Assembly: GCA_947629165.1 (NCBI GenBank)
Contig: CANRCR010000001.1
Span: 86,246 to 150,245 of the forward strand
DNA length: 64,000 nt
Direction: 5' to 3'
Source: an uncultured Bacilli bacterium
Lineage (GTDB): Bacteria > Bacillota_I > Bacilli_A > RF39 > UBA660
Below are positions 8,967 to 17,293 of the stretch, in pieces. The notes under the pieces are model-generated. The model was not told the DNA's origin. It was given only the letters and a program-made list of their open reading frames with translations, and did no database searches. The position numbers and the translations under genes are program-made. Position 1 is the stretch's first letter; every line of letters starts with the position of its first letter.

Positions 8967-9030
8967 GCCCAAAAAAATGTCATATCTTTTTTCTTCGTTC
9001 ATATAGTGTATTAGAAATGAGGGAAAATGA

Positions 9031-9540
9031 GTGATTAACAAGCAAAATTTGTGGTTCTTAACATTATTTAGTTTGATTTTAGTATTAAGTGTTTATTACA
9101 TTACGATGCCGAGTGAATTGCTTCTTACCAATAACAGTAATTACGATACGAATGTTTCTAGTGATTCGGATACCGATGTTGTTCAGATCGAAGAAAGCGA
9201 TTTACTAACGGCCATGCGTGTCAGTTTAGATGAAGAACGACTTGAGTTACAAAATACACTTCAGGAAACTTTAACATCTACTTCTTCTTCGACCGAGGAT
9301 AAGAATGAAGCTTATGAAAAATTAAGACATCTCGACGAAGTAAAAGGAAAAGAAGAGACACTCGAAAATAAAATAAAAACAAATTTTAAACTGGATAACT
9401 TTATTAAAATTGATGGTAGTGAAATTCAAGTAGTTGTTGTTGCACAAGAACATAGTAGTGAACTTGCGAATAACATTATGCGTAGCATACAAGAAGAGTT
9501 TCCAGAAAAAGTATATGTGACTGTAAAATTTGAAAAGTAA
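9031..9540 (+). CDS. spoIIIAH: Stage III sporulation protein AH-like (SpoIIIAH family)
   Basis: GTG start. The N-terminus MINKQNLWFLTLFSLILVLSVYYI closely parallels B. subtilis SpoIIIAH (…WLLTMLSLVVVLSVYYI…). Single TM segment followed by a YscJ/FliF-like domain. It sits directly downstream of efp, as the spoIIIA operon does in Bacillus. Confidence 0.65.
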   Translation: MINKQNLWFLTLFSLILVLSVYYITMPSELLLTNNSNYDTNVSSDSDTDVVQIEESDLLTAMRVSLDEERLELQNTLQETLTSTSSSTEDKNEAYEKLRHLDEVKGKEETLENKIKTNFKLDNFIKIDGSEIQVVVVAQEHSSELANNIMRSIQEEFPEKVYVTVKFEK

Positions 9541-9633
9541 AATAATTTAGGCAAAATTACTATGCTTTTACCCTTCGAACTCATAAAATAATATGAGTCT
9601 ATATCAAAATGTTTTAGGAGAAGGAGTGAAAGT

Positions 9634-9843
9634 GTGCGCAAAGGTATTTTAACGAAAAGAGAAAAAGAAGTATTTAATCTCTTGGTTTTAAATAAAACGA
9701 CAAAAGAAATTGCTTTTGATTTAGGTATCAGTGAGAAAACCGTTCGTAATCATATTTCGAATGCTATGCAAAAATTGGGCGTTAAAGGTAGGGCAGGAGC
9801 GGTTGTCGAATTGTTAAAACTAAATGAAATCAGTCTCTCGTAA
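9634..9843 (+). CDS. gerE: Sporulation transcription regulator GerE (LuxR/FixJ-type HTH)
   Basis: 69 aa. ...LLTKREKEVFNLLVLNKTTKEIAFDLGISEKTVRNHISNAMQKLGVKGRAGAVVELL is nearly identical across its length to B. subtilis GerE. GTG start behind RBS aggagaaggag. Confidence 0.85.
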   Translation: MRKGILTKREKEVFNLLVLNKTTKEIAFDLGISEKTVRNHISNAMQKLGVKGRAGAVVELLKLNEISLS

Positions 9844-9870
9844 GAAAGATATAAAAATCTTTCTTTTTTG
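9843..9870 (+). terminator. Rho-independent terminator after gerE
   Basis: Hairpin agaaagatataaaaatctttct followed by a T-run. Confidence 0.65.
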
Positions 9871-9914
9871 TTATTTTAAAAACTTTCATTTCATACAATT
9901 GATTAGGTGATAAC

Positions 9915-10859
9915 ATGTTAAAACAAAAGGCCTTACGTAAAATTTTAGTAACTACTTTTGCCGTTTTTATTTTGTTTGTACTTTATTTAATTCCGGATAT
10001 TCAACCTACGAATCGGTTAAATCCTGTCACGGAAGTAGAATATGTCGACGAATTAAATACCAATGTTGTCTATCTCTTAAGTAATGATCGTTATTTAGTA
10101 AAAGCGCATCTTTTGCTAGAGGGAAATGATACTTTAAGTAAAGCGAAAAGCATTGTAAAAACTTTAACGATTAATCAAAATAAAAATTTACCAAGTGGTT
10201 TTACAGGAATTATTCCTGAAAAAACAATTTTAGAGGAAGTTACATTTGATAAAGGAATTTTAACACTTAATTTTAATAAAGAACTTTTATCGATCGATGC
10301 TGATTTAGAAGAACGAATGGTGGAGGCACTCGTTTATAGTCTTACTTCTTTGGATGGCGTAGAAGGAATTACGATCCGTGTAGAAAACGAAGTTTTAGAA
10401 GCTTTGCCACATCGTAAAAAGCCCCTTTCTTCTATTCTTACTACTGATTTTGGAATTAATAAAGTGTACGAATTTTCTCAAAAAGACGATATTCATAAAG
10501 TTGTTGTTTACTATCTTTTAGAAAATGATGATACGTATTATGTTCCCGTAACGAAATATGTAAATGATAGTCGTGATAAGATTGAAATTATTATTGATAA
10601 CTTATCGAGTAGTTATATTTATCAACCTAATTTGACTTCTTTTTTGGATCGAGAAGCAAGTTTGTTAAATTATGAAATTTCGGATGGATTAATGATTTTG
10701 GAGTTTAATGATCATCTTTTTGATGGCAATCAAAAAGTGTTAGAAGAGGTACTTTATACCATTTCGTATTCTGTTTTTGATAACTATGATGTCAATGAAG
10801 TACTATTTCAAGTAGGAGAGGAATCGGTCTTTAAACAGTTACGCACGGAACTACCATAA
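9915..10859 (+). CDS. gerM: GerM-like sporulation/germination protein (two GerMN domains, N-terminal membrane anchor)
   Basis: N-terminal TM helix. There are two repeats with the GerMN pattern (VVYLL...; IPEKT.LEEVTFDKGILTLNF...VYSLTSLDGVEGITIRVENE; and a second copy VVVYYLLENDD...GLMILEFNDHLF...LYTISYSVFDNYDVNEVLFQV). Confidence 0.55.
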   Translation: MLKQKALRKILVTTFAVFILFVLYLIPDIQPTNRLNPVTEVEYVDELNTNVVYLLSNDRYLVKAHLLLEGNDTLSKAKSIVKTLTINQNKNLPSGFTGIIPEKTILEEVTFDKGILTLNFNKELLSIDADLEERMVEALVYSLTSLDGVEGITIRVENEVLEALPHRKKPLSSILTTDFGINKVYEFSQKDDIHKVVVYYLLENDDTYYVPVTKYVNDSRDKIEIIIDNLSSSYIYQPNLTSFLDREASLLNYEISDGLMILEFNDHLFDGNQKVLEEVLYTISYSVFDNYDVNEVLFQVGEESVFKQLRTELP

Positions 10860-11012: not shown

Positions 11013-11089
<77 letters not shown>

Positions 11090-11396: not shown

Positions 11397-13163
11397 ATGT
11401 GTGGTATTGTAGGATACCTAGGAAATAGAAAAGCAATTCCTGTAATTATGCAGGGGTTAAAGAGTTTGGAATATCGTGGTTACGATTCTTCTGGAATTGC
11501 GTACGTTCAAGATCAGATGATTCACGTACTAAAAAAAGAAGGAAAAATAGAAAATTTAGATACCCTGTTGGATTATGATACGGATACCTATTTAGGAATC
11601 GCCCATACAAGGTGGGCTACGCATGGGAAGGCAAACGATATTAATGCTCATCCTCATACTTCAGGAAAAATCACTTTAGTTCATAATGGAATTATTGAAA
11701 ATTATGCCCAATTAAAGAAAAAACTCATTGAAAAAGGAAAAACTTTTGTCAGTGAAACCGATACGGAAGTCGTTGCTTGTTTACTCGATACTCTTTATGA
11801 AGAAACCAAAGATTTACTTAAAGCAATTGCACTTTTATCTGAAAAGGTAATCGGTTCTTATGCGTTAAATATTCTTTGTGAAGATGAACTCGATACTTTG
11901 TATGCCGTTCGAAAAGATAGTCCTTTGATTGTTGGAAGGGGGAATCAGGAATTTATTTTAGCGAGTGATATTCCAGCTTTACTTCCTGTTACGAATCATT
12001 ATTATCTTTTAGATAATTATGAAATTGTTAAAATAACCAAAGAAGGGATTTCTTTCTATGATCAAAAGTTAAATAAAATTACGAAAGTAGAACAGGAATA
12101 TACGGGTGACTTGGAAGTTTCTTCTAAAAAAGGATACGACCACTTTATGTTAAAGGAAATCAATGAACAACCGGAAGTAATTAAAAACTTACTTGCAAAA
12201 TATGTTGTAGAAGATCATCTTCAAAATGTTTTCGATATCAAAAAATATCAAACCATTGAAATTGTTGCCTGTGGAAGTGCCTATCATGCAGGTTTAATTG
12301 GCAAGTATTATTTGGAAAATTTAGCATCGATTCCAACGCGTGTCACTTATTCTTCCGAATATCGTTATCAGAAGAATTTCTTTGATAAGAATAATTTAGT
12401 TATTGTAATTTCACAATCTGGAGAAACGGCGGACACGTTAGCTGCTTTGAAATTAGCCAAAGAGCATGGAATCGACACGTTAGCGATTGTCAATGTGGTT
12501 TCTTCTTCGATTGCCCGTGAAGCAGATCATGTATTTTATACGGATGCCGGTATTGAAGTTGCGGTAGCGACTACCAAAGCTTATTTTGCTCAAGTAGTAT
12601 CGTTATTACTTCTTGCCGTGGCAACCTTAAAAGAACAAGCATCGATTCTTGCTTCATTGAAACAACTACCTTCGCTTATTTCGAAATATATTCATCATTT
12701 TGATTATGAAACACTTGCGAAACGTTTTATAGGTCGGGAACATATTTTCTATTTAGGAAGAGGCGTTGACTTTTCACTCGCAATGGAAGGAAGTTTAAAA
12801 TTAAAAGAAATTTCTTATATCCATAGTGAAGCTTATCCTGCTGGAGAATTAAAACATGGAACGATTTCACTAGTGGACGAAGAAACTGGAATTATTGCGG
12901 TTGTACTCGATCATACCATTAAAGAAAAGACGATTAGTAACTTGAAAGAAGTTGCTTCAAGGGGTGCTCAAGTGGTTGCTATTACGAACGATGCTACCGA
13001 TGAATTTTGTGATGAAAAAATACTTCTCGAAGATTATGATGCAGTGATTAATCCGTTAGTTGCGATTATTCCTATGCAATTATTAGCTTATCATGTTGCC
13101 AAGTTAAAAAAATGTGATATTGATAAACCACGCAATCTTGCGAAATCGGTTACCGTGGAATAA
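11397..13163 (+). CDS. glmS: Glutamine--fructose-6-phosphate aminotransferase
   Basis: N-terminal MCGIVGY (Ntn Cys). Two SIS domains. 588 aa. RBS taggaggtt. Confidence 0.9.
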   Translation: MCGIVGYLGNRKAIPVIMQGLKSLEYRGYDSSGIAYVQDQMIHVLKKEGKIENLDTLLDYDTDTYLGIAHTRWATHGKANDINAHPHTSGKITLVHNGIIENYAQLKKKLIEKGKTFVSETDTEVVACLLDTLYEETKDLLKAIALLSEKVIGSYALNILCEDELDTLYAVRKDSPLIVGRGNQEFILASDIPALLPVTNHYYLLDNYEIVKITKEGISFYDQKLNKITKVEQEYTGDLEVSSKKGYDHFMLKEINEQPEVIKNLLAKYVVEDHLQNVFDIKKYQTIEIVACGSAYHAGLIGKYYLENLASIPTRVTYSSEYRYQKNFFDKNNLVIVISQSGETADTLAALKLAKEHGIDTLAIVNVVSSSIAREADHVFYTDAGIEVAVATTKAYFAQVVSLLLLAVATLKEQASILASLKQLPSLISKYIHHFDYETLAKRFIGREHIFYLGRGVDFSLAMEGSLKLKEISYIHSEAYPAGELKHGTISLVDEETGIIAVVLDHTIKEKTISNLKEVASRGAQVVAITNDATDEFCDEKILLEDYDAVINPLVAIIPMQLLAYHVAKLKKCDIDKPRNLAKSVTVE

Positions 13164-13256: not shown

Positions 13257-13733
13257 ATGAAAAAGATAATGTCTGTAGCAGGAGCAGCTGCTTTAGGAGT
13301 TACTTCTTTGGCAGGAACTGCGGCTATTGTTGCAAAAGGATGTATTGATGTTACCGCACATATGGTAGATAAAGGATATAAATTAAATAAGGATGCTTAT
13401 TTAGCTTATTCAAAAGAGCATAATGCATCGAAAGAAAAAGAAAAGACTTTTAAAGACACCTTATGTACTTTTCTTACTTACGTGCCGGTAGTTAATGTCG
13501 GAATATCACTTTACGTAATGCACGAAGTTACTAAAATGTTTGATGATGTAGAGGAGATATCTCCTTATCTTGAACCTTTAACAGAAAATGAAAAAATCGA
13601 ACGTGCTGGACTTCATAATAATTTTGAAAAAGCAATGTATTTTATAGAAGCTTCCGGATTAACCAAGGACGAAATCGAGTCATGTCTCGCAGAAGAAAAA
13701 GGTCCTACGTATATTAAACTTCCAACTGAATAG
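13257..13733 (+). CDS. Hypothetical protein with N-terminal hydrophobic/signal-like segment
   Basis: 158 aa, RBS taggaggtt, N-terminus MKKIMSVAGAAALGVTSLAGTAAIVA. A terminator follows. Confidence 0.5.
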   Translation: MKKIMSVAGAAALGVTSLAGTAAIVAKGCIDVTAHMVDKGYKLNKDAYLAYSKEHNASKEKEKTFKDTLCTFLTYVPVVNVGISLYVMHEVTKMFDDVEEISPYLEPLTENEKIERAGLHNNFEKAMYFIEASGLTKDEIESCLAEEKGPTYIKLPTE

Positions 13734-13736
13734 ATG

Positions 13737-13767
13737 AAAACGTATTTTTAAAATACGTTTTTTTTTG
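13737..13767 (+). terminator. Rho-independent terminator
   Basis: Hairpin aaaacgtatttttaaaatacgtttt followed by a T-run. Confidence 0.65.
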
Positions 13768-13824
13768 TAAAAAAAATTAGTATTCGTTTTATTTTTTCGG
13801 AATGATATCTTTGGAGGTGAAAAA

Positions 13825-15912
13825 ATGAAACATTACGAATGTGTTCGACAAGATGGAACGAAAGATTGTGGAATTGCTTCTTTACTTACTATTGTAAAAA
13901 CGTATGGTGGCTCCGTTTCGAAAGAGTATTTACGCACACTTACTAGGACAGGGAAGAATGGAGTGAATGCCTATTACTTACTCGAAGCAGGAAAAACATT
14001 AGGTTTTATGGCACAAGGAGTAGAAGCAGATTTTCGTACTTTTTCGAATCAAAATTTACCTTGTATTGCGCATATTACCGTTAATGAAAGTTATCAACAT
14101 TTTGTCGTCATTCATGCTATTCAAAAGGAAAAAGAATATCTTGTGGTAGCAGATCCAGCCGTTGGTATTCGAACGATTTCTTTTGCTGAATTCGACCGAT
14201 TATCTACTGGAAAATATTTGCTTTTTACTTTAACGAAACCCTTATTACAACAACAAAAGAGTCCATCTACTAAAAAGATTATTAACCTCACTTTAAAAAA
14301 CCATTATAAACTCTTGATTTTGATTTTCATATTTTCCTTTATTTATCTTTTTTTAGAGTTATTGACTTCTTTTGCATTTCAACTATTTCTTGAAGAAGGA
14401 ATGATTGGTTCCATCAAGCAAAATTTATTACTCGCTTTTGTTACTTTTTTAGGATTTACTTTTTTTCTTGAAGTGTTTCAATATCTTCGAAGAGTTTTTG
14501 TTTTTTACCTTTCTAATCATATCGATTTCGTACTTTTTAAACAACTCATCGAACATCTTTTTTCACTTCCGTATCTTTATTTTAAAAATCGCCCAACAGG
14601 AGAAGTTTTAGCGCGTCTTTCCGATCGACAGCAATTACAAGAAGGAATCACCCAATTCTTTTTATCTTTTTGTTTTGACGCCTTGGCCTTTTTATTTTTG
14701 TTTTTCTTTTTAAGTTGGTTTTTAAATTCGTTTTTTTGGGTACTTATCATCGGTTTTGTATTATTCGCTTTTGTATCCTATTATTTATTTCGACCAATCA
14801 AAGAAAAAATAGCTATTTGGACTAAAGAACGTGGAATGCATTTTTCTATGTTAACCGAGTCTCTTCGAGGAATTAGTTCCTTACAACATCTTGATCTTAC
14901 TACTTCTCATAGTCACTCTTTAATCTATGCGTATCGAAAGATACTAGGAGAACAAAATATTTTACAGAAGGATTTATCTCGTTTATTCGTATTTCGTGAA
15001 TTCGTTCAAAAAATATTATTACTCATCTATCTCTATTGGGGTGGTTTACAAGTCGTTCAAGGAACTTTATCTTTTGGTCGTTTTTTTGTTTGTTATACGT
15101 TTATTCATTATTTTATTGATCATTTTTCAAATTTACTTTTCTTTTTTGAAAATTATCAATCGATGGGGATTGTTATCGATCGACTCGATGAATTATTGCA
15201 GTGTCCTTCTCAAGAATTCCTATTTGAAGTAGGTGCCTCCCTAAAGAAATGGGAGCAAGGTATATCGATTCGAAACTTATCGTATTCCTATATTCCTCAT
15301 GACTTTGTTATTCGAAATTTTTCACTCGAAATAAAACCAGGTATGCGCCTTTTAATCTATGGAGAAAGTGGTAGTGGCAAAAGTACGTTGGCTAAACTGC
15401 TATTACGTTATTTTGAAGTTGCTCCTCATACCATTTATATCGACAATACGGATCTATCTGATTTTAATCTCTTACAATTACGGCAACAAATTTCTTATCT
15501 TTCTCAAGAAGAATTTCTTTTTACAGATAGTGTTTATCAAAATGTAGTACTGTATCGGGATGTTTCGTACGATGCTTTTTTAAAAGTGGCTAGGCTCGTC
15601 CGACTTGATTTTATTAAAGATAAAAGTAGTCTAGGATATCATTACTTACTGGAAGAAGATGGATTTAATTTAAGTGGTGGAGAAAGGCAACGTATTTTAT
15701 TAGCTCGAGCTTTATTAAAAGAGGCACAATTATATATTTTTGATGAAAGTTTTAGTGAAATTGATGTTCCTACTGAAAGAAAAATTTTAAAAGATCTTTT
15801 TCATACTTATCCGAATAAGACTTTTCTTATTATTTCTCATCGGCTATCCAATCAAGATTTATATGACCGAAAAATTTGTTTCCAAAAGGAGGGGATTCGT
15901 CGTGCAGTATGA
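13825..15912 (+). CDS. Bacteriocin-processing ABC transporter with N-terminal C39 peptidase domain (ComA/LagD/SunT type; ATP-binding plus permease)
   Basis: N-terminal C39 domain (QDGTKDCGIASL... catalytic Cys; H in HFVVIHA; D in ADPAVG). Six-helix TM region. ABC ATPase with Walker A GESGSGKST, signature LSGGERQRILLARAL, Walker B LYIFDES and H-loop ISHRLS. Confidence 0.85.
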   Translation: MKHYECVRQDGTKDCGIASLLTIVKTYGGSVSKEYLRTLTRTGKNGVNAYYLLEAGKTLGFMAQGVEADFRTFSNQNLPCIAHITVNESYQHFVVIHAIQKEKEYLVVADPAVGIRTISFAEFDRLSTGKYLLFTLTKPLLQQQKSPSTKKIINLTLKNHYKLLILIFIFSFIYLFLELLTSFAFQLFLEEGMIGSIKQNLLLAFVTFLGFTFFLEVFQYLRRVFVFYLSNHIDFVLFKQLIEHLFSLPYLYFKNRPTGEVLARLSDRQQLQEGITQFFLSFCFDALAFLFLFFFLSWFLNSFFWVLIIGFVLFAFVSYYLFRPIKEKIAIWTKERGMHFSMLTESLRGISSLQHLDLTTSHSHSLIYAYRKILGEQNILQKDLSRLFVFREFVQKILLLIYLYWGGLQVVQGTLSFGRFFVCYTFIHYFIDHFSNLLFFFENYQSMGIVIDRLDELLQCPSQEFLFEVGASLKKWEQGISIRNLSYSYIPHDFVIRNFSLEIKPGMRLLIYGESGSGKSTLAKLLLRYFEVAPHTIYIDNTDLSDFNLLQLRQQISYLSQEEFLFTDSVYQNVVLYRDVSYDAFLKVARLVRLDFIKDKSSLGYHYLLEEDGFNLSGGERQRILLARALLKEAQLYIFDESFSEIDVPTERKILKDLFHTYPNKTFLIISHRLSNQDLYDRKICFQKEGIRRAV

Positions 15913-16330
15913 AAAAGTGTACTATAAAGATGCTCTTACTTTTCCGTTAGTTCCTATCTTTATAGGAATAGTATTTGTTTTTTTAATTATTTTCTTTGGT
16001 TGGTTGATTCAATTCTTTTATTATCATTCGGCACTTACTGTACAAGGTGCATTTACCAAGGAAGAAAAAATGTATATTCTTTTTCCGAGTGCTTATGAAT
16101 CTACCATTTTTAAAAGTTCTTCAGTAACGATTGCCAATCAAACGATTCCGGTTTTAACAATCGAAGTGATTGGAAATAAAGTGATCGATGGAAACTTATA
16201 TACCGAAGCCTATTTGCATCTCGAATCCAGTTCTTTTTTGCCTTATCATTATTACGAAGTTACTTTGTTAGGTGAAAAGAAAAACTTTTGGGATTATCTC
16301 ATCAGTTATGGAAAGGAGGTGATGGCATGA
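15902..16330 (+). CDS. Small membrane protein co-transcribed with the bacteriocin ABC exporter (accessory or immunity candidate)
   Basis: In-frame GTG at 15902 overlaps the transporter stop. There is a long hydrophobic N-terminal segment (LVPIFIGIVFVFLIIFFGWLIQFFYY) followed by a soluble domain of about 100 aa. No recognisable HlyD fold. Confidence 0.45.
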   Translation: MQYEKVYYKDALTFPLVPIFIGIVFVFLIIFFGWLIQFFYYHSALTVQGAFTKEEKMYILFPSAYESTIFKSSSVTIANQTIPVLTIEVIGNKVIDGNLYTEAYLHLESSSFLPYHYYEVTLLGEKKNFWDYLISYGKEVMA

Positions 16331-16470
16331 GAGTGTTATCTTCCCAAGAACTCGTTCAGATGGAAGGAGGGAGTATTTCTTTATGGGTGAGTTGTGGGAT
16401 TGTTGCTTTGGTTGTTTTAGCCGCGGGTATTATCGATGGTTTCACCCGACCATTAAAATGTAATGATTAA
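16327..16470 (+). CDS. Double-glycine-leader bacteriocin precursor peptide A
   Basis: ATG at 16327 behind RBS aaggaggtg. MRVLSSQELVQMEGG | SISLWVSCGIVALVVLAAGIIDGFTRPLKCND. The leader fits the LSxxELxxIxGG consensus. The mature peptide is a 33-aa hydrophobic peptide with a GxxxG motif and 2 Cys. Confidence 0.75.
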   Translation: MRVLSSQELVQMEGGSISLWVSCGIVALVVLAAGIIDGFTRPLKCND

Positions 16471-16480
16471 AGGAGGTATT

Positions 16481-16648
16481 ATGAAATTATTAACGACGGA
16501 TGAATTATTGCAAATAGAAGGTGGTGTATCTCTTTCGGGGTCACTTATTAATGCCGTAGGTAGTATTATTAAGATTGTACTCGAAGTAGGACGAAGTATC
16601 GGAAGTGGGCTACGTCGTTTATATGACGATTCTATGTGCACTTTATGA
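16481..16648 (+). CDS. Double-glycine-leader bacteriocin precursor peptide B
   Basis: ATG at 16481 behind RBS aaggaggt. MKLLTTDELLQIEGG | VSLSGSLINAVGSIIKIVLEVGRSIGSGLRRLYDDSMCTL. Canonical GG leader. The mature peptide is 41 aa, amphipathic and Gly-rich, with a GxxxG motif. Confidence 0.75.
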   Translation: MKLLTTDELLQIEGGVSLSGSLINAVGSIIKIVLEVGRSIGSGLRRLYDDSMCTL

Positions 16649-16818
16649 GAACCTTTTTCGTAACCCATAAAAAGACTTTTTTTCTTGGTGGACAAATTCT
16701 CTTTATTCTAATTTTTATCCTTTATGGTGTTCCTATATTATTTCATGTTGGGACTTATATCGGATCTTTTTTACGGTATGTTTTTATCGTTTTTTATAAA
16801 TTGGCACACCTGTTGTAA
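16636..16818 (+). CDS. Small two-helix hydrophobic protein (candidate bacteriocin immunity protein)
   Basis: 60 aa: ...FFLGGQILFILIFILYGVPILFHVGTYIGSFLRYVFIVFY. Located immediately 3' of the peptide genes. Confidence 0.4.
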   Translation: MHFMRTFFVTHKKTFFLGGQILFILIFILYGVPILFHVGTYIGSFLRYVFIVFYKLAHLL

Positions 16819-16891
16819 ATTTTTTGTCAAATTAGTGGTATTTCTTTTGTTTCTTTACTATAATAGAAAGTATTAGAAATGAGGAAAGAAA

Positions 16892-17293
16892 ATGACAGAA
16901 AAAAAAGATTTTGATGTAACAACTATTTACGATGTTTTTGATTATTACACTTTTGAAGGTGTTGAAAGAGATGATCCAACGGCTCAAATGATTAAACGTT
17001 TAGGAACTATCGTTGTAGCCGAGGAATTGGGAGGTATTTTACCCGAAACAGAAAAAACAGTTTATCAACAAGTTTCGGTAGAAACGATCGACCGTGTCAA
17101 AGAAGCTATTTATCGTCATCCACTCGAGATGATTGAAAAAATGTTTTTCCCTGTAACCGACGCCTGGCGTGTATCGGGTTATGCTTTGTTTCCGAACGGT
17201 TACCAACAAATTAAAGAACAATTTTTAAAAGAAGTTTCTTCCGTTCAAACATCGTCAGCAAACGTATCGACTCAAAAGGTCAAAAAACGTTAA
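16892..17293 (+). CDS. Hypothetical protein (133 aa)
   Basis: Intact ORF with RBS gaggaaag. No family recognised. Confidence 0.5.
   Translation: MTEKKDFDVTTIYDVFDYYTFEGVERDDPTAQMIKRLGTIVVAEELGGILPETEKTVYQQVSVETIDRVKEAIYRHPLEMIEKMFFPVTDAWRVSGYALFPNGYQQIKEQFLKEVSSVQTSSANVSTQKVKKR

Follow-up and report, generated by a model that had tools for sequence, protein, structure and literature searches.

A conserved cassette of an exporter and two double-glycine leader peptides in uncultured Bacilli, a candidate class IIb bacteriocin system

The 64-kb window analyzed here (64,000 nucleotides of contig CANRCR010000001.1, from an uncultured Bacilli bacterium) contains, at positions 13825-16818 of the + strand, a cassette of five tightly packed, co-oriented open reading frames (ORFs), all of them verified in the window, which encode in this order a peptidase-containing ABC transporter (PCAT), an accessory protein, two peptide precursors with double-glycine (GG) leaders, A and B, and a small membrane peptide, C. 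We lean towards the view that this operon specifies a class IIb-type two-peptide GG-leader system, whose mature peptides would act as a membrane-active heterodimer against other bacteria; a class II bacteriocin is the best-supported default reading of the sequences. A bacteriocin-like locus with this five-ORF layout was what the original prediction had proposed, and every ORF is indeed present. The locus had also been called unannotated, which does not hold: peptides A and B are deposited in NCBI/ENA records as predicted proteins, though nameless, and the 57-amino-acid (aa) peptide C product is recorded as well. Public gene calls in the same or closely related species give the identical series of 695, 142, 47, 55 and 57 aa.

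The two peptides and their exporter

As originally predicted, the two peptide genes lie in tandem, with textbook leaders and AGGAGG ribosome-binding sites (RBS) of their own. The precursor of peptide A (47 aa, 16327-16470, +), whose ATG overlaps the stop codon of the accessory gene, consists of the GG leader MRVLSSQELVQMEGG (16327-16371) and the mature peptide SISLWVSCGIVALVVLAAGIIDGFTRPLKCND (32 aa, 16372-16467), a hydrophobic, transmembrane (TM)-like helix with a GxxxG motif (GIIDG) and a DGFxRPLxC tail. That of peptide B (55 aa, 16481-16648, +) consists of the GG leader MKLLTTDELLQIEGG (16481-16525) and the mature peptide VSLSGSLINAVGSIIKIVLEVGRSIGSGLRRLYDDSMCTL (40 aa), an amphipathic helix with a GxxxG-xxx-RR motif and one C-terminal cysteine. 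In both leaders, positions -4, -7 and -12 are hydrophobic, position -8 is a glutamate and the end is GG, and in a six-frame scan of the whole window these two ORFs were the only ones to fit the leader pattern. No modification enzymes are encoded near the cassette.

GxxxG motifs characterize two-peptide (class IIb) bacteriocins. Two marks of this class, two adjacent genes for unmodified GG-leader peptides and a GxxxG motif in each product, are found here: the gene pair is kept in about 80 loci, and the motif reads G(I/V)(I/L)DG in 63 of 63 unique homologs of peptide A and G(R/Q)xxG in 55 of 55 unique homologs of peptide B. In the peptide A family, about 20 hydrophobic residues are followed by the tail G-(I/V/M)-(I/L)-D-G-(F/Y/W)-x-x-P-x-x-C, of which G..DG[FYW]...C is kept in all 63 homologs, and 54 of them contain exactly one cysteine; the mature window peptide has a Kyte-Doolittle 19-residue mean of 2.44, a TM-like value. 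All 55 peptide B homologs share G-x-x-x-G-x-x-h-R-(R) and a single cysteine in the last eight residues. The hydrophobic moment of peptide B is 0.76, and the mean net charge of its family is +3.3.

Against curated family models, window peptides A and B scored 22.0 bits (E 1.7e-4) and 17.9 bits (E 3.2e-3), respectively, for Bacteriocin_IIc (cut-off 27.1), and 15.1 and 16.8 bits (peptide B: E 4.3e-3) for TIGR03949, the lactobin A/cerein 7B family (cut-off 21.5). TIGR03949 is matched by 24 of 27 peptide A relatives, and five relatives scored individually (loci L067, L019, L054, L028 and L015) reached 22.7 to 26.4 bits, above the cut-off and over nearly the whole model. On the basis of these relatives, we assign peptide A to a known class IIb family, as a divergent and borderline member, though the window peptide itself falls below the cut-off; peptide B belongs to no curated family. 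Many members also match the lactococcin G/enterocin 1071 families weakly. The bacteriocin reading proposed at the outset is supported in part, by the architecture and by the peptide A relatives, and not by the scores of the window peptides, which stay below all cut-offs. A class IIa (pediocin-like) identity was considered as well and is ruled out, as neither mature peptide contains the YGNG(V/L) box of that class.

The exporter (695 aa, 13825-15912, +), preceded by a GGAGG at 13813-13817, matches the Pfam families Peptidase_C39 (E 6.7e-31), ABC_membrane (E 2.2e-22) and ABC_tran (E 2.3e-25). Its best match in the PDB is PCAT1 (4ry2; E 4.6e-83, residues 2-679), with whose Gln, Cys, His and Asp its catalytic residues Q9, C15 (the Cys of 'DCG'), H92 and D110 align, so that the N-terminal C39 domain initially read from the sequence is confirmed. 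These four residues, the Walker A, Walker B and signature motifs and the H-loop are invariant across 44 non-redundant exporter relatives. The protein scores below the curated NCBIfam cut-offs, with 348 bits against 523.85 for TIGR01193 (bacteriocin_ABC) and 263 against 500 bits for NF045998, and it also lies under that of TIGR03796. Since eight relatives, at 229 to 466 bits, are likewise under the TIGR01193 cut-off, the exporter is by its sequence a PCAT of a divergent clade outside the curated subfamilies. When genome contigs were scanned with the ABC protein alone, only distant, unrelated ABC ATPases were matched. Gram-positive PCATs act alone or with one accessory protein, and their commonest function is bacteriocin biosynthesis (PMC7018657).

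The following mechanism is proposed. The PCAT would recognize both leaders, is predicted to cleave both precursors after GG by means of its C39 domain, and would then export the mature peptides using ATP. Peptide A, as a hydrophobic helix with a polar tail, and peptide B, as a cationic amphipathic helix, would pack helix to helix via their GxxxG motifs, and the resulting pair would act on the membranes of other bacteria. The one invariant C-terminal cysteine found in each peptide family suggests a disulfide between A and B, which could lock the pair. In the clade of the window (mature peptide A at 16372-16467; also L011, L012 and L014), peptide A has a second cysteine, at core position 8, which is missing in most of the family.

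The accessory protein and peptide C

The accessory protein (142 aa, 15902-16330, +) starts at a GTG that lies eight bases past a GGAGG and overlaps the stop codon of the exporter gene, a start also chosen by independent gene callers; the overlap was correctly predicted, and only the length had to be changed, from 143 to 142 aa. As also stated originally, there is neither a full-length HlyD-like protein nor a histidine kinase/response regulator (HK/RR) gene within about 7 kb of the cassette in the window. The accessory protein has no Pfam match, and a sequence-profile search of the PDB was blank. Only about five relatives are detectable by sequence among 1.84 billion representatives: word-indexed searches with this protein, or with peptide B, returned same-species copies only, and an exhaustive phmmer search with the accessory protein added just three more distant relatives, plus low-complexity matches. 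When loci were collected by context, a single-pass protein of about 125-155 aa was found at the same position in most of them.

An AlphaFold2 model of the accessory protein (mean pLDDT 79.7, from a shallow alignment; the other four models scored lower) predicts an N-terminal TM helix (residues ~16-36), an extracytoplasmic beta-barrel (~40-128) and a C-terminal helix. The predicted protein has a membrane anchor and a beta-barrel, as in HlyD/membrane fusion protein accessories, and is devoid of alpha-hairpin, lipoyl domain and membrane-proximal domain. Foldseek returned nothing significant for the model, similar small barrels being found in unrelated proteins, and there was no match to a HlyD-family hidden Markov model (HMM) or Pfam entry among the families listed for 32 accessory members. 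For these reasons, homology to the HlyD/ComB/MacA class is not established, and we do not file the protein there. From the model, we read it as a minimal adaptor, made of anchor and barrel only, that would work like the HlyD/ComB class and may descend from it; it could be a membrane-anchored, barrel-only remnant, or an analog, of a HlyD/MacA-type adaptor. A weak signal came from the MAG1140 model NF045999, which the accessory protein matches at 14.7 bits (E 0.026; cut-off 35) through residues 19-135, against 10-126 of its 126 positions, and which 5 of 10 accessory relatives also match (best E 0.0012).

Peptide C (57 aa, 16645-16818, +) begins at an ATG that overlaps the stop codon of peptide B (ATGA). 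The small membrane protein that had been predicted to close the locus exists, but the 60 aa ascribed to it from a GTG at 16636 are less likely than 57 aa from the ATG at 16645, which public gene calls use. Members of the family have a basic N-terminus and one TM helix, followed by F-x-x-G-x-x-x-G-T-F-x-R...C, in which G...G is invariant. In a comparison of the peptide C and peptide B families by hhalign, the last 32 columns aligned with the last 32 of mature peptide B with a probability of 92% (E 6.6e-7), the matched positions including GxxxG, Arg and Cys. On the strength of this profile-profile match to the C-terminal half of mature peptide B, peptide C is in all appearance a leaderless, membrane-tethered paralog of peptide B. 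Its residues 14-16 ('LGG') had made it a candidate for a third GG-leader peptide; this was rejected, as the family alignment shows the basic N-terminus and TM anchor, with an unconserved GG. The window peptide has lost the C-terminal cysteine that is kept by 31 of 41 family members. Together with the extra cysteine in peptide A of the window clade, this loss makes the cysteine pattern non-uniform across the family.

The position of peptide C after the peptide genes, and its membrane nature, would suit a dedicated immunity gene. No immunity family was matched in Pfam, NCBIfam or PADLOC, and we regard the peptide as a candidate immunity or docking protein. In effect the working end of peptide B fixed to the membrane, it would probably shield the producer, either by engaging peptide A or by sitting at the target site. 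Among 45 non-redundant loci with enough sequence, the accessory and peptide C genes are both present in 29 and both absent in 12, whereas the accessory gene occurs without peptide C in 4, at least two of which contain undetected pepC-like ORFs, and peptide C never occurs without the accessory gene (0 of 45). Loci without the two genes fall in at least three places on a rough neighbor-joining tree of the exporters. This joint presence and absence of two genes that are not adjacent suggests that their products work together; immunity would then be achieved by mimicry, with peptide C acting together with the accessory protein. In two of the three-gene loci, which lack both the accessory protein and peptide C, peptide B is followed by an ORF of about 420 aa (L047, 5338-6606; L052, 1212-2483), which by the look of its sequence we take to be a candidate FemAB-type peptidoglycan-bridge transferase.

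Conservation of the cassette and its possible roles

The closest public exporters are 96%, 52%, 47% and 44% identical to that of the window, followed by a long series at 31-39%. The contigs of six related exporters were examined with Pfam annotation, and five of them carry a PCAT, a protein of about 130-145 aa, a 45-48-aa peptide and a 55-56-aa peptide in the same order (the sixth has no accessory gene); four of the five cassettes lie directly upstream of rpsU-yqeY, and one lies beside ftsA-ftsZ. A metagenome scan with the peptide A alignment gave 92 confirmed loci, 80 of which were taken for scripted HMM annotation. The same gene order was found in nearly all of the 80, and rpsU and yqeY follow on most contigs that are long enough. 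The order PCAT, accessory protein, pepA, pepB, pepC is kept in loci whose exporters have 33-52% identity, and also in some 80 loci from metagenomes. Judging by contig names, some of these come from human gut and one from activated sludge; further ones we take, from their JGI identifiers, to be rumen and anaerobic-digester samples.

The GC content of the cassette (0.29-0.36) equals that of its flanks. From its sequence context, the cassette appears to be vertically inherited and lineage-wide in uncultured low-GC Bacilli, and not a mobile island. The initial idea of a self-contained insert in a core region must be given up, as the cassette is itself a conserved block beside rpsU-yqeY in very divergent uncultured Bacilli. 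The block can be interrupted: in L016, a gene for an IS605-family OrfB/TnpB (Cas12f-like) protein is inserted between rpsU and yqeY (9017-10165).

Relative to the three nearest syntenic relatives, identities are 45-52% for the exporter, 26-27% for the accessory protein, 40-67% for the leaders, 67-69% for mature peptide A and 65-68% for mature peptide B, compared with 62-70% for YqeY, 63-72% for YbeY and 47-56% for YqfD. For 404 pairs from 29 non-redundant loci, identities average 38% for the exporter, 27% for the accessory protein, 44% and 56% for the leader and core of peptide A, 46% and 43% for the leader and core of peptide B, 56% for YqeY and 68% for RpsU. In its rate of change, the core of peptide A resembles a housekeeping protein, and it is better conserved than either its own leader or the exporter; class II bacteriocins usually show the opposite, with a conserved leader and a variable core. 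Between close strains, changes in the peptide B core are synonymous only, and about 10% of the amino acids of the accessory protein change. In L033 (2605-5316), the exporter gene lies in at least five pieces and that of peptide B in two, in contrast to the near-identical and intact L032; L033 is either a decaying copy or the product of long-read frameshift errors.

Several observations weigh against a class IIb-type weapon. The conservation is unlike that of typical bacteriocins, with a peptide A core as conserved as YqeY and a site fixed beside rpsU; at the pneumococcal rtg GG-peptide locus, by contrast, the transporter is functional in only 17% of strains (PMC7018657). A dozen loci without accessory protein and peptide C have no visible immunity gene. 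The window peptides are under every curated family cut-off, and the likeness of the accessory protein to an adaptor is one of predicted fold, with no HlyD HMM match and no significant Foldseek result. The disulfide, finally, is argued from conserved cysteines, and the window clade has one too many in peptide A and none in peptide C.

It is possible, if clearly less probable than the class IIb reading, that peptides A, B and C act, along with the accessory protein, for the producer's own benefit: they could assemble into a small complex in the membrane or at the cell surface, or be a factor that the producer directs at itself, for its envelope physiology or for recognition between cells. The PCAT would be a machine dedicated to maturation and insertion, and the bacteriocin features would be ancestral only. 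The fixed site beside rpsU-yqeY across exporters that are only 33-52% identical, a peptide A core conserved like YqeY and more than the exporter, and a composition matching the flanks are what one would expect in this case. A membrane-anchored paralog of peptide B is likewise expected among subunits of one complex, and the one invariant cysteine per peptide and the three-gene versions without an immunity candidate point the same way. Two carrier contigs measure about 0.82-0.83 Mb, so that the hosts would be small-genomed if these are near-complete genomes. However, no PCAT substrate pair is known to have a housekeeping role of this sort, peptide A relatives receive class IIb bacteriocin scores, several lineages do without the accessory protein and peptide C, and the L033 locus, with its fragmented ABC and pepB genes, looks degraded, a sequencing error being possible. 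A more specific proposal, to which we attach slightly less credence, holds that the cassette is not a weapon but an ancient, vertically inherited, near-housekeeping module shared by a large set of uncultured low-GC Bacilli, in which a disulfide-linked A-B heterodimer, tethered peptide C and the minimal adaptor would form a surface or membrane complex acting on the cell's own envelope or on kin. Homologs of such a module may extend to the Mycoplasma Mbov_0121/MAG1140 pair.

Alternatively, one or both peptides might be quorum-sensing pheromones of the ComC/BlpC type, sensed by a histidine kinase whose gene lies elsewhere in the genome. Pheromones are also among the substrates of PCATs (PMC7018657), and there are faint matches to the ComC, BlpC and EntF induction-factor models. 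These are at the level of the leader, however, the ComC Pfam match (E 0.099) covering the leader only. A mature peptide A that is a hydrophobic 32-aa TM-like helix is ill-suited to diffusion, and HK/RR genes were found neither within some 7 kb of the cassette in the window nor in the gene calls of the six Pfam-annotated related loci, which together make this role improbable; the matching GxxxG pair and the tethered paralog point instead to a membrane assembly. A further reading would have the small ORFs arise by chance and the ABC protein export other substrates as a generic transporter. It is suggested by the shortness of the ORFs and by the lack of above-threshold family matches in the window sequences, yet it is refuted, to the point of being negligible, by comparative data: the 63 and 55 unique homologs with invariant motifs and a constant order after the PCAT, the synonymous-only changes in the peptide B core between strains, the strong RBS at each ORF and the restriction of the leader pattern to these two ORFs of the window.

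Genomic surroundings and relation to known systems

On the 5' side, the cassette is preceded, in this order, by genes for a penicillin-binding protein, EF-P, SpoIIIAH, a Germane-domain protein, tRNA-Arg, the glmS ribozyme, GlmS and a 158-aa protein without assignment. On the 3' side come a 133-aa protein, also without assignment, RpsU, YqeY, YabP, YqfD, VanZ, YbeY, Era and RecO. The neighbors on both sides are core genes, in agreement with the original prediction. The tRNA-Arg(TCT) gene (11013-11089) precedes the glmS ribozyme/riboswitch RF00234 (11239-11385, +; 64.7 bits, E 1.6e-13), which lies directly 5' of glmS (11397-13163); no Rfam element was found within the cassette. The 158-aa protein (13257-13733, +), between glmS and the cassette, has an N-terminal hydrophobic segment and no family match, and was not found outside the same or a closely related species (L007, L098), being absent from more distant syntenic loci.

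The locus had been thought to be bracketed by terminators, of which only the upstream one is found. An AU-rich, terminator-like hairpin followed by a U-run (13737-13770, +) ends the gene of the 158-aa protein and forms the 5' boundary of the operon; it folds at -12 kcal/mol (z -3.96), a stability equaled in 1 of 200 shuffles, and had been overlooked by the GC-based terminator scan. Past 16818, neither that scan nor RNA folding gave an evident terminator, and there is no hairpin in 16805-16895. Next comes the gene of the 133-aa protein (16892-17293, +), between peptide C and rpsU. It encodes an acidic cytoplasmic protein without match in Pfam, NCBIfam or PADLOC, with homologs at the same position only in the nearer relatives L011 and L014. 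No terminator lies between this gene and peptide C. Co-transcription with the cassette is possible, and membership of the system is uncertain. A defense-system reading was dropped, PADLOC being blank for the accessory protein, peptide C and the flanking proteins without assignment.

A PCAT with a two-peptide GG system is already known as a kind. In full-text literature searches, we found no earlier description of this peptide pair, of its lineage-wide synteny with rpsU, of a barrel-only accessory protein, or of a tethered paralog derived from peptide B and its coupling to the accessory protein. Two-peptide bacteriocins, known mainly from lactic acid bacteria, are generally regarded as accessory weapons that vary between strains. 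In the present case, a recognizable class IIb-type system appears to be conserved, with its synteny, in many uncultured Bacilli from gut, rumen and digesters; its peptides evolve slowly, its accessory protein resembles a minimal adaptor, and one of the peptides has a tethered copy. If killing is what the peptides do, they would represent a widespread, uncharacterized bacteriocin family, probably with a conserved target, and an example of immunity arising by toxin duplication. Otherwise, the PCAT pathway would be seen in a new physiological role. In both cases there are concrete peptides to synthesize and, for organisms that are hard to culture, a simple mass-spectrometric test in the presence or absence of a disulfide-linked heterodimer.

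With PCAT1 of Clostridium/Acetivibrio thermocellum, ComA and other PCATs, the window exporter shares the three-domain architecture, a full-length alignment, the Q/C/H/D residues and the ATPase motifs. It differs from PCAT1 and ComA by its divergence, which places it below the TIGR01193, TIGR03796 and NF045998 cut-offs, and by its partner: PCAT1 is not known to have an accessory protein, and ComA works with ComB, of about 450 aa, whereas the window exporter is paired with a protein of 142 aa. This small size, and the missing alpha-hairpin, lipoyl and membrane-proximal domains, also set the accessory protein apart from the HlyD/ComB/LcnD and MacA/AcrA proteins. The Mycoplasma pair of an Mbov_0121-family peptidase ABC protein (NF045998) and MAG1140 (NF045999) likewise places a PCAT beside a protein of about 126 aa. 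The window accessory protein aligns with the MAG1140 model end to end, but at 14.7 against 35 bits, and the PCATs of the cassettes score 220-332 bits with NF045998, against a cut-off of 500.

In overall layout, the cassette resembles class IIb loci, such as those of lactobin A/cerein 7B, lactococcin G/enterocin 1071 and plantaricins EF/JK, which likewise have two adjacent genes for unmodified GG-leader GxxxG peptides, a gene for a small membrane protein after them and a dedicated C39-ABC transporter. Unlike in those loci, the window peptides score below cut-off, peptide B having no curated family; the peptide cores are not strain-variable but conserved across very divergent hosts at a fixed site; each peptide has one invariant C-terminal cysteine; and the putative immunity protein would be a paralog of the cassette's own peptide B.

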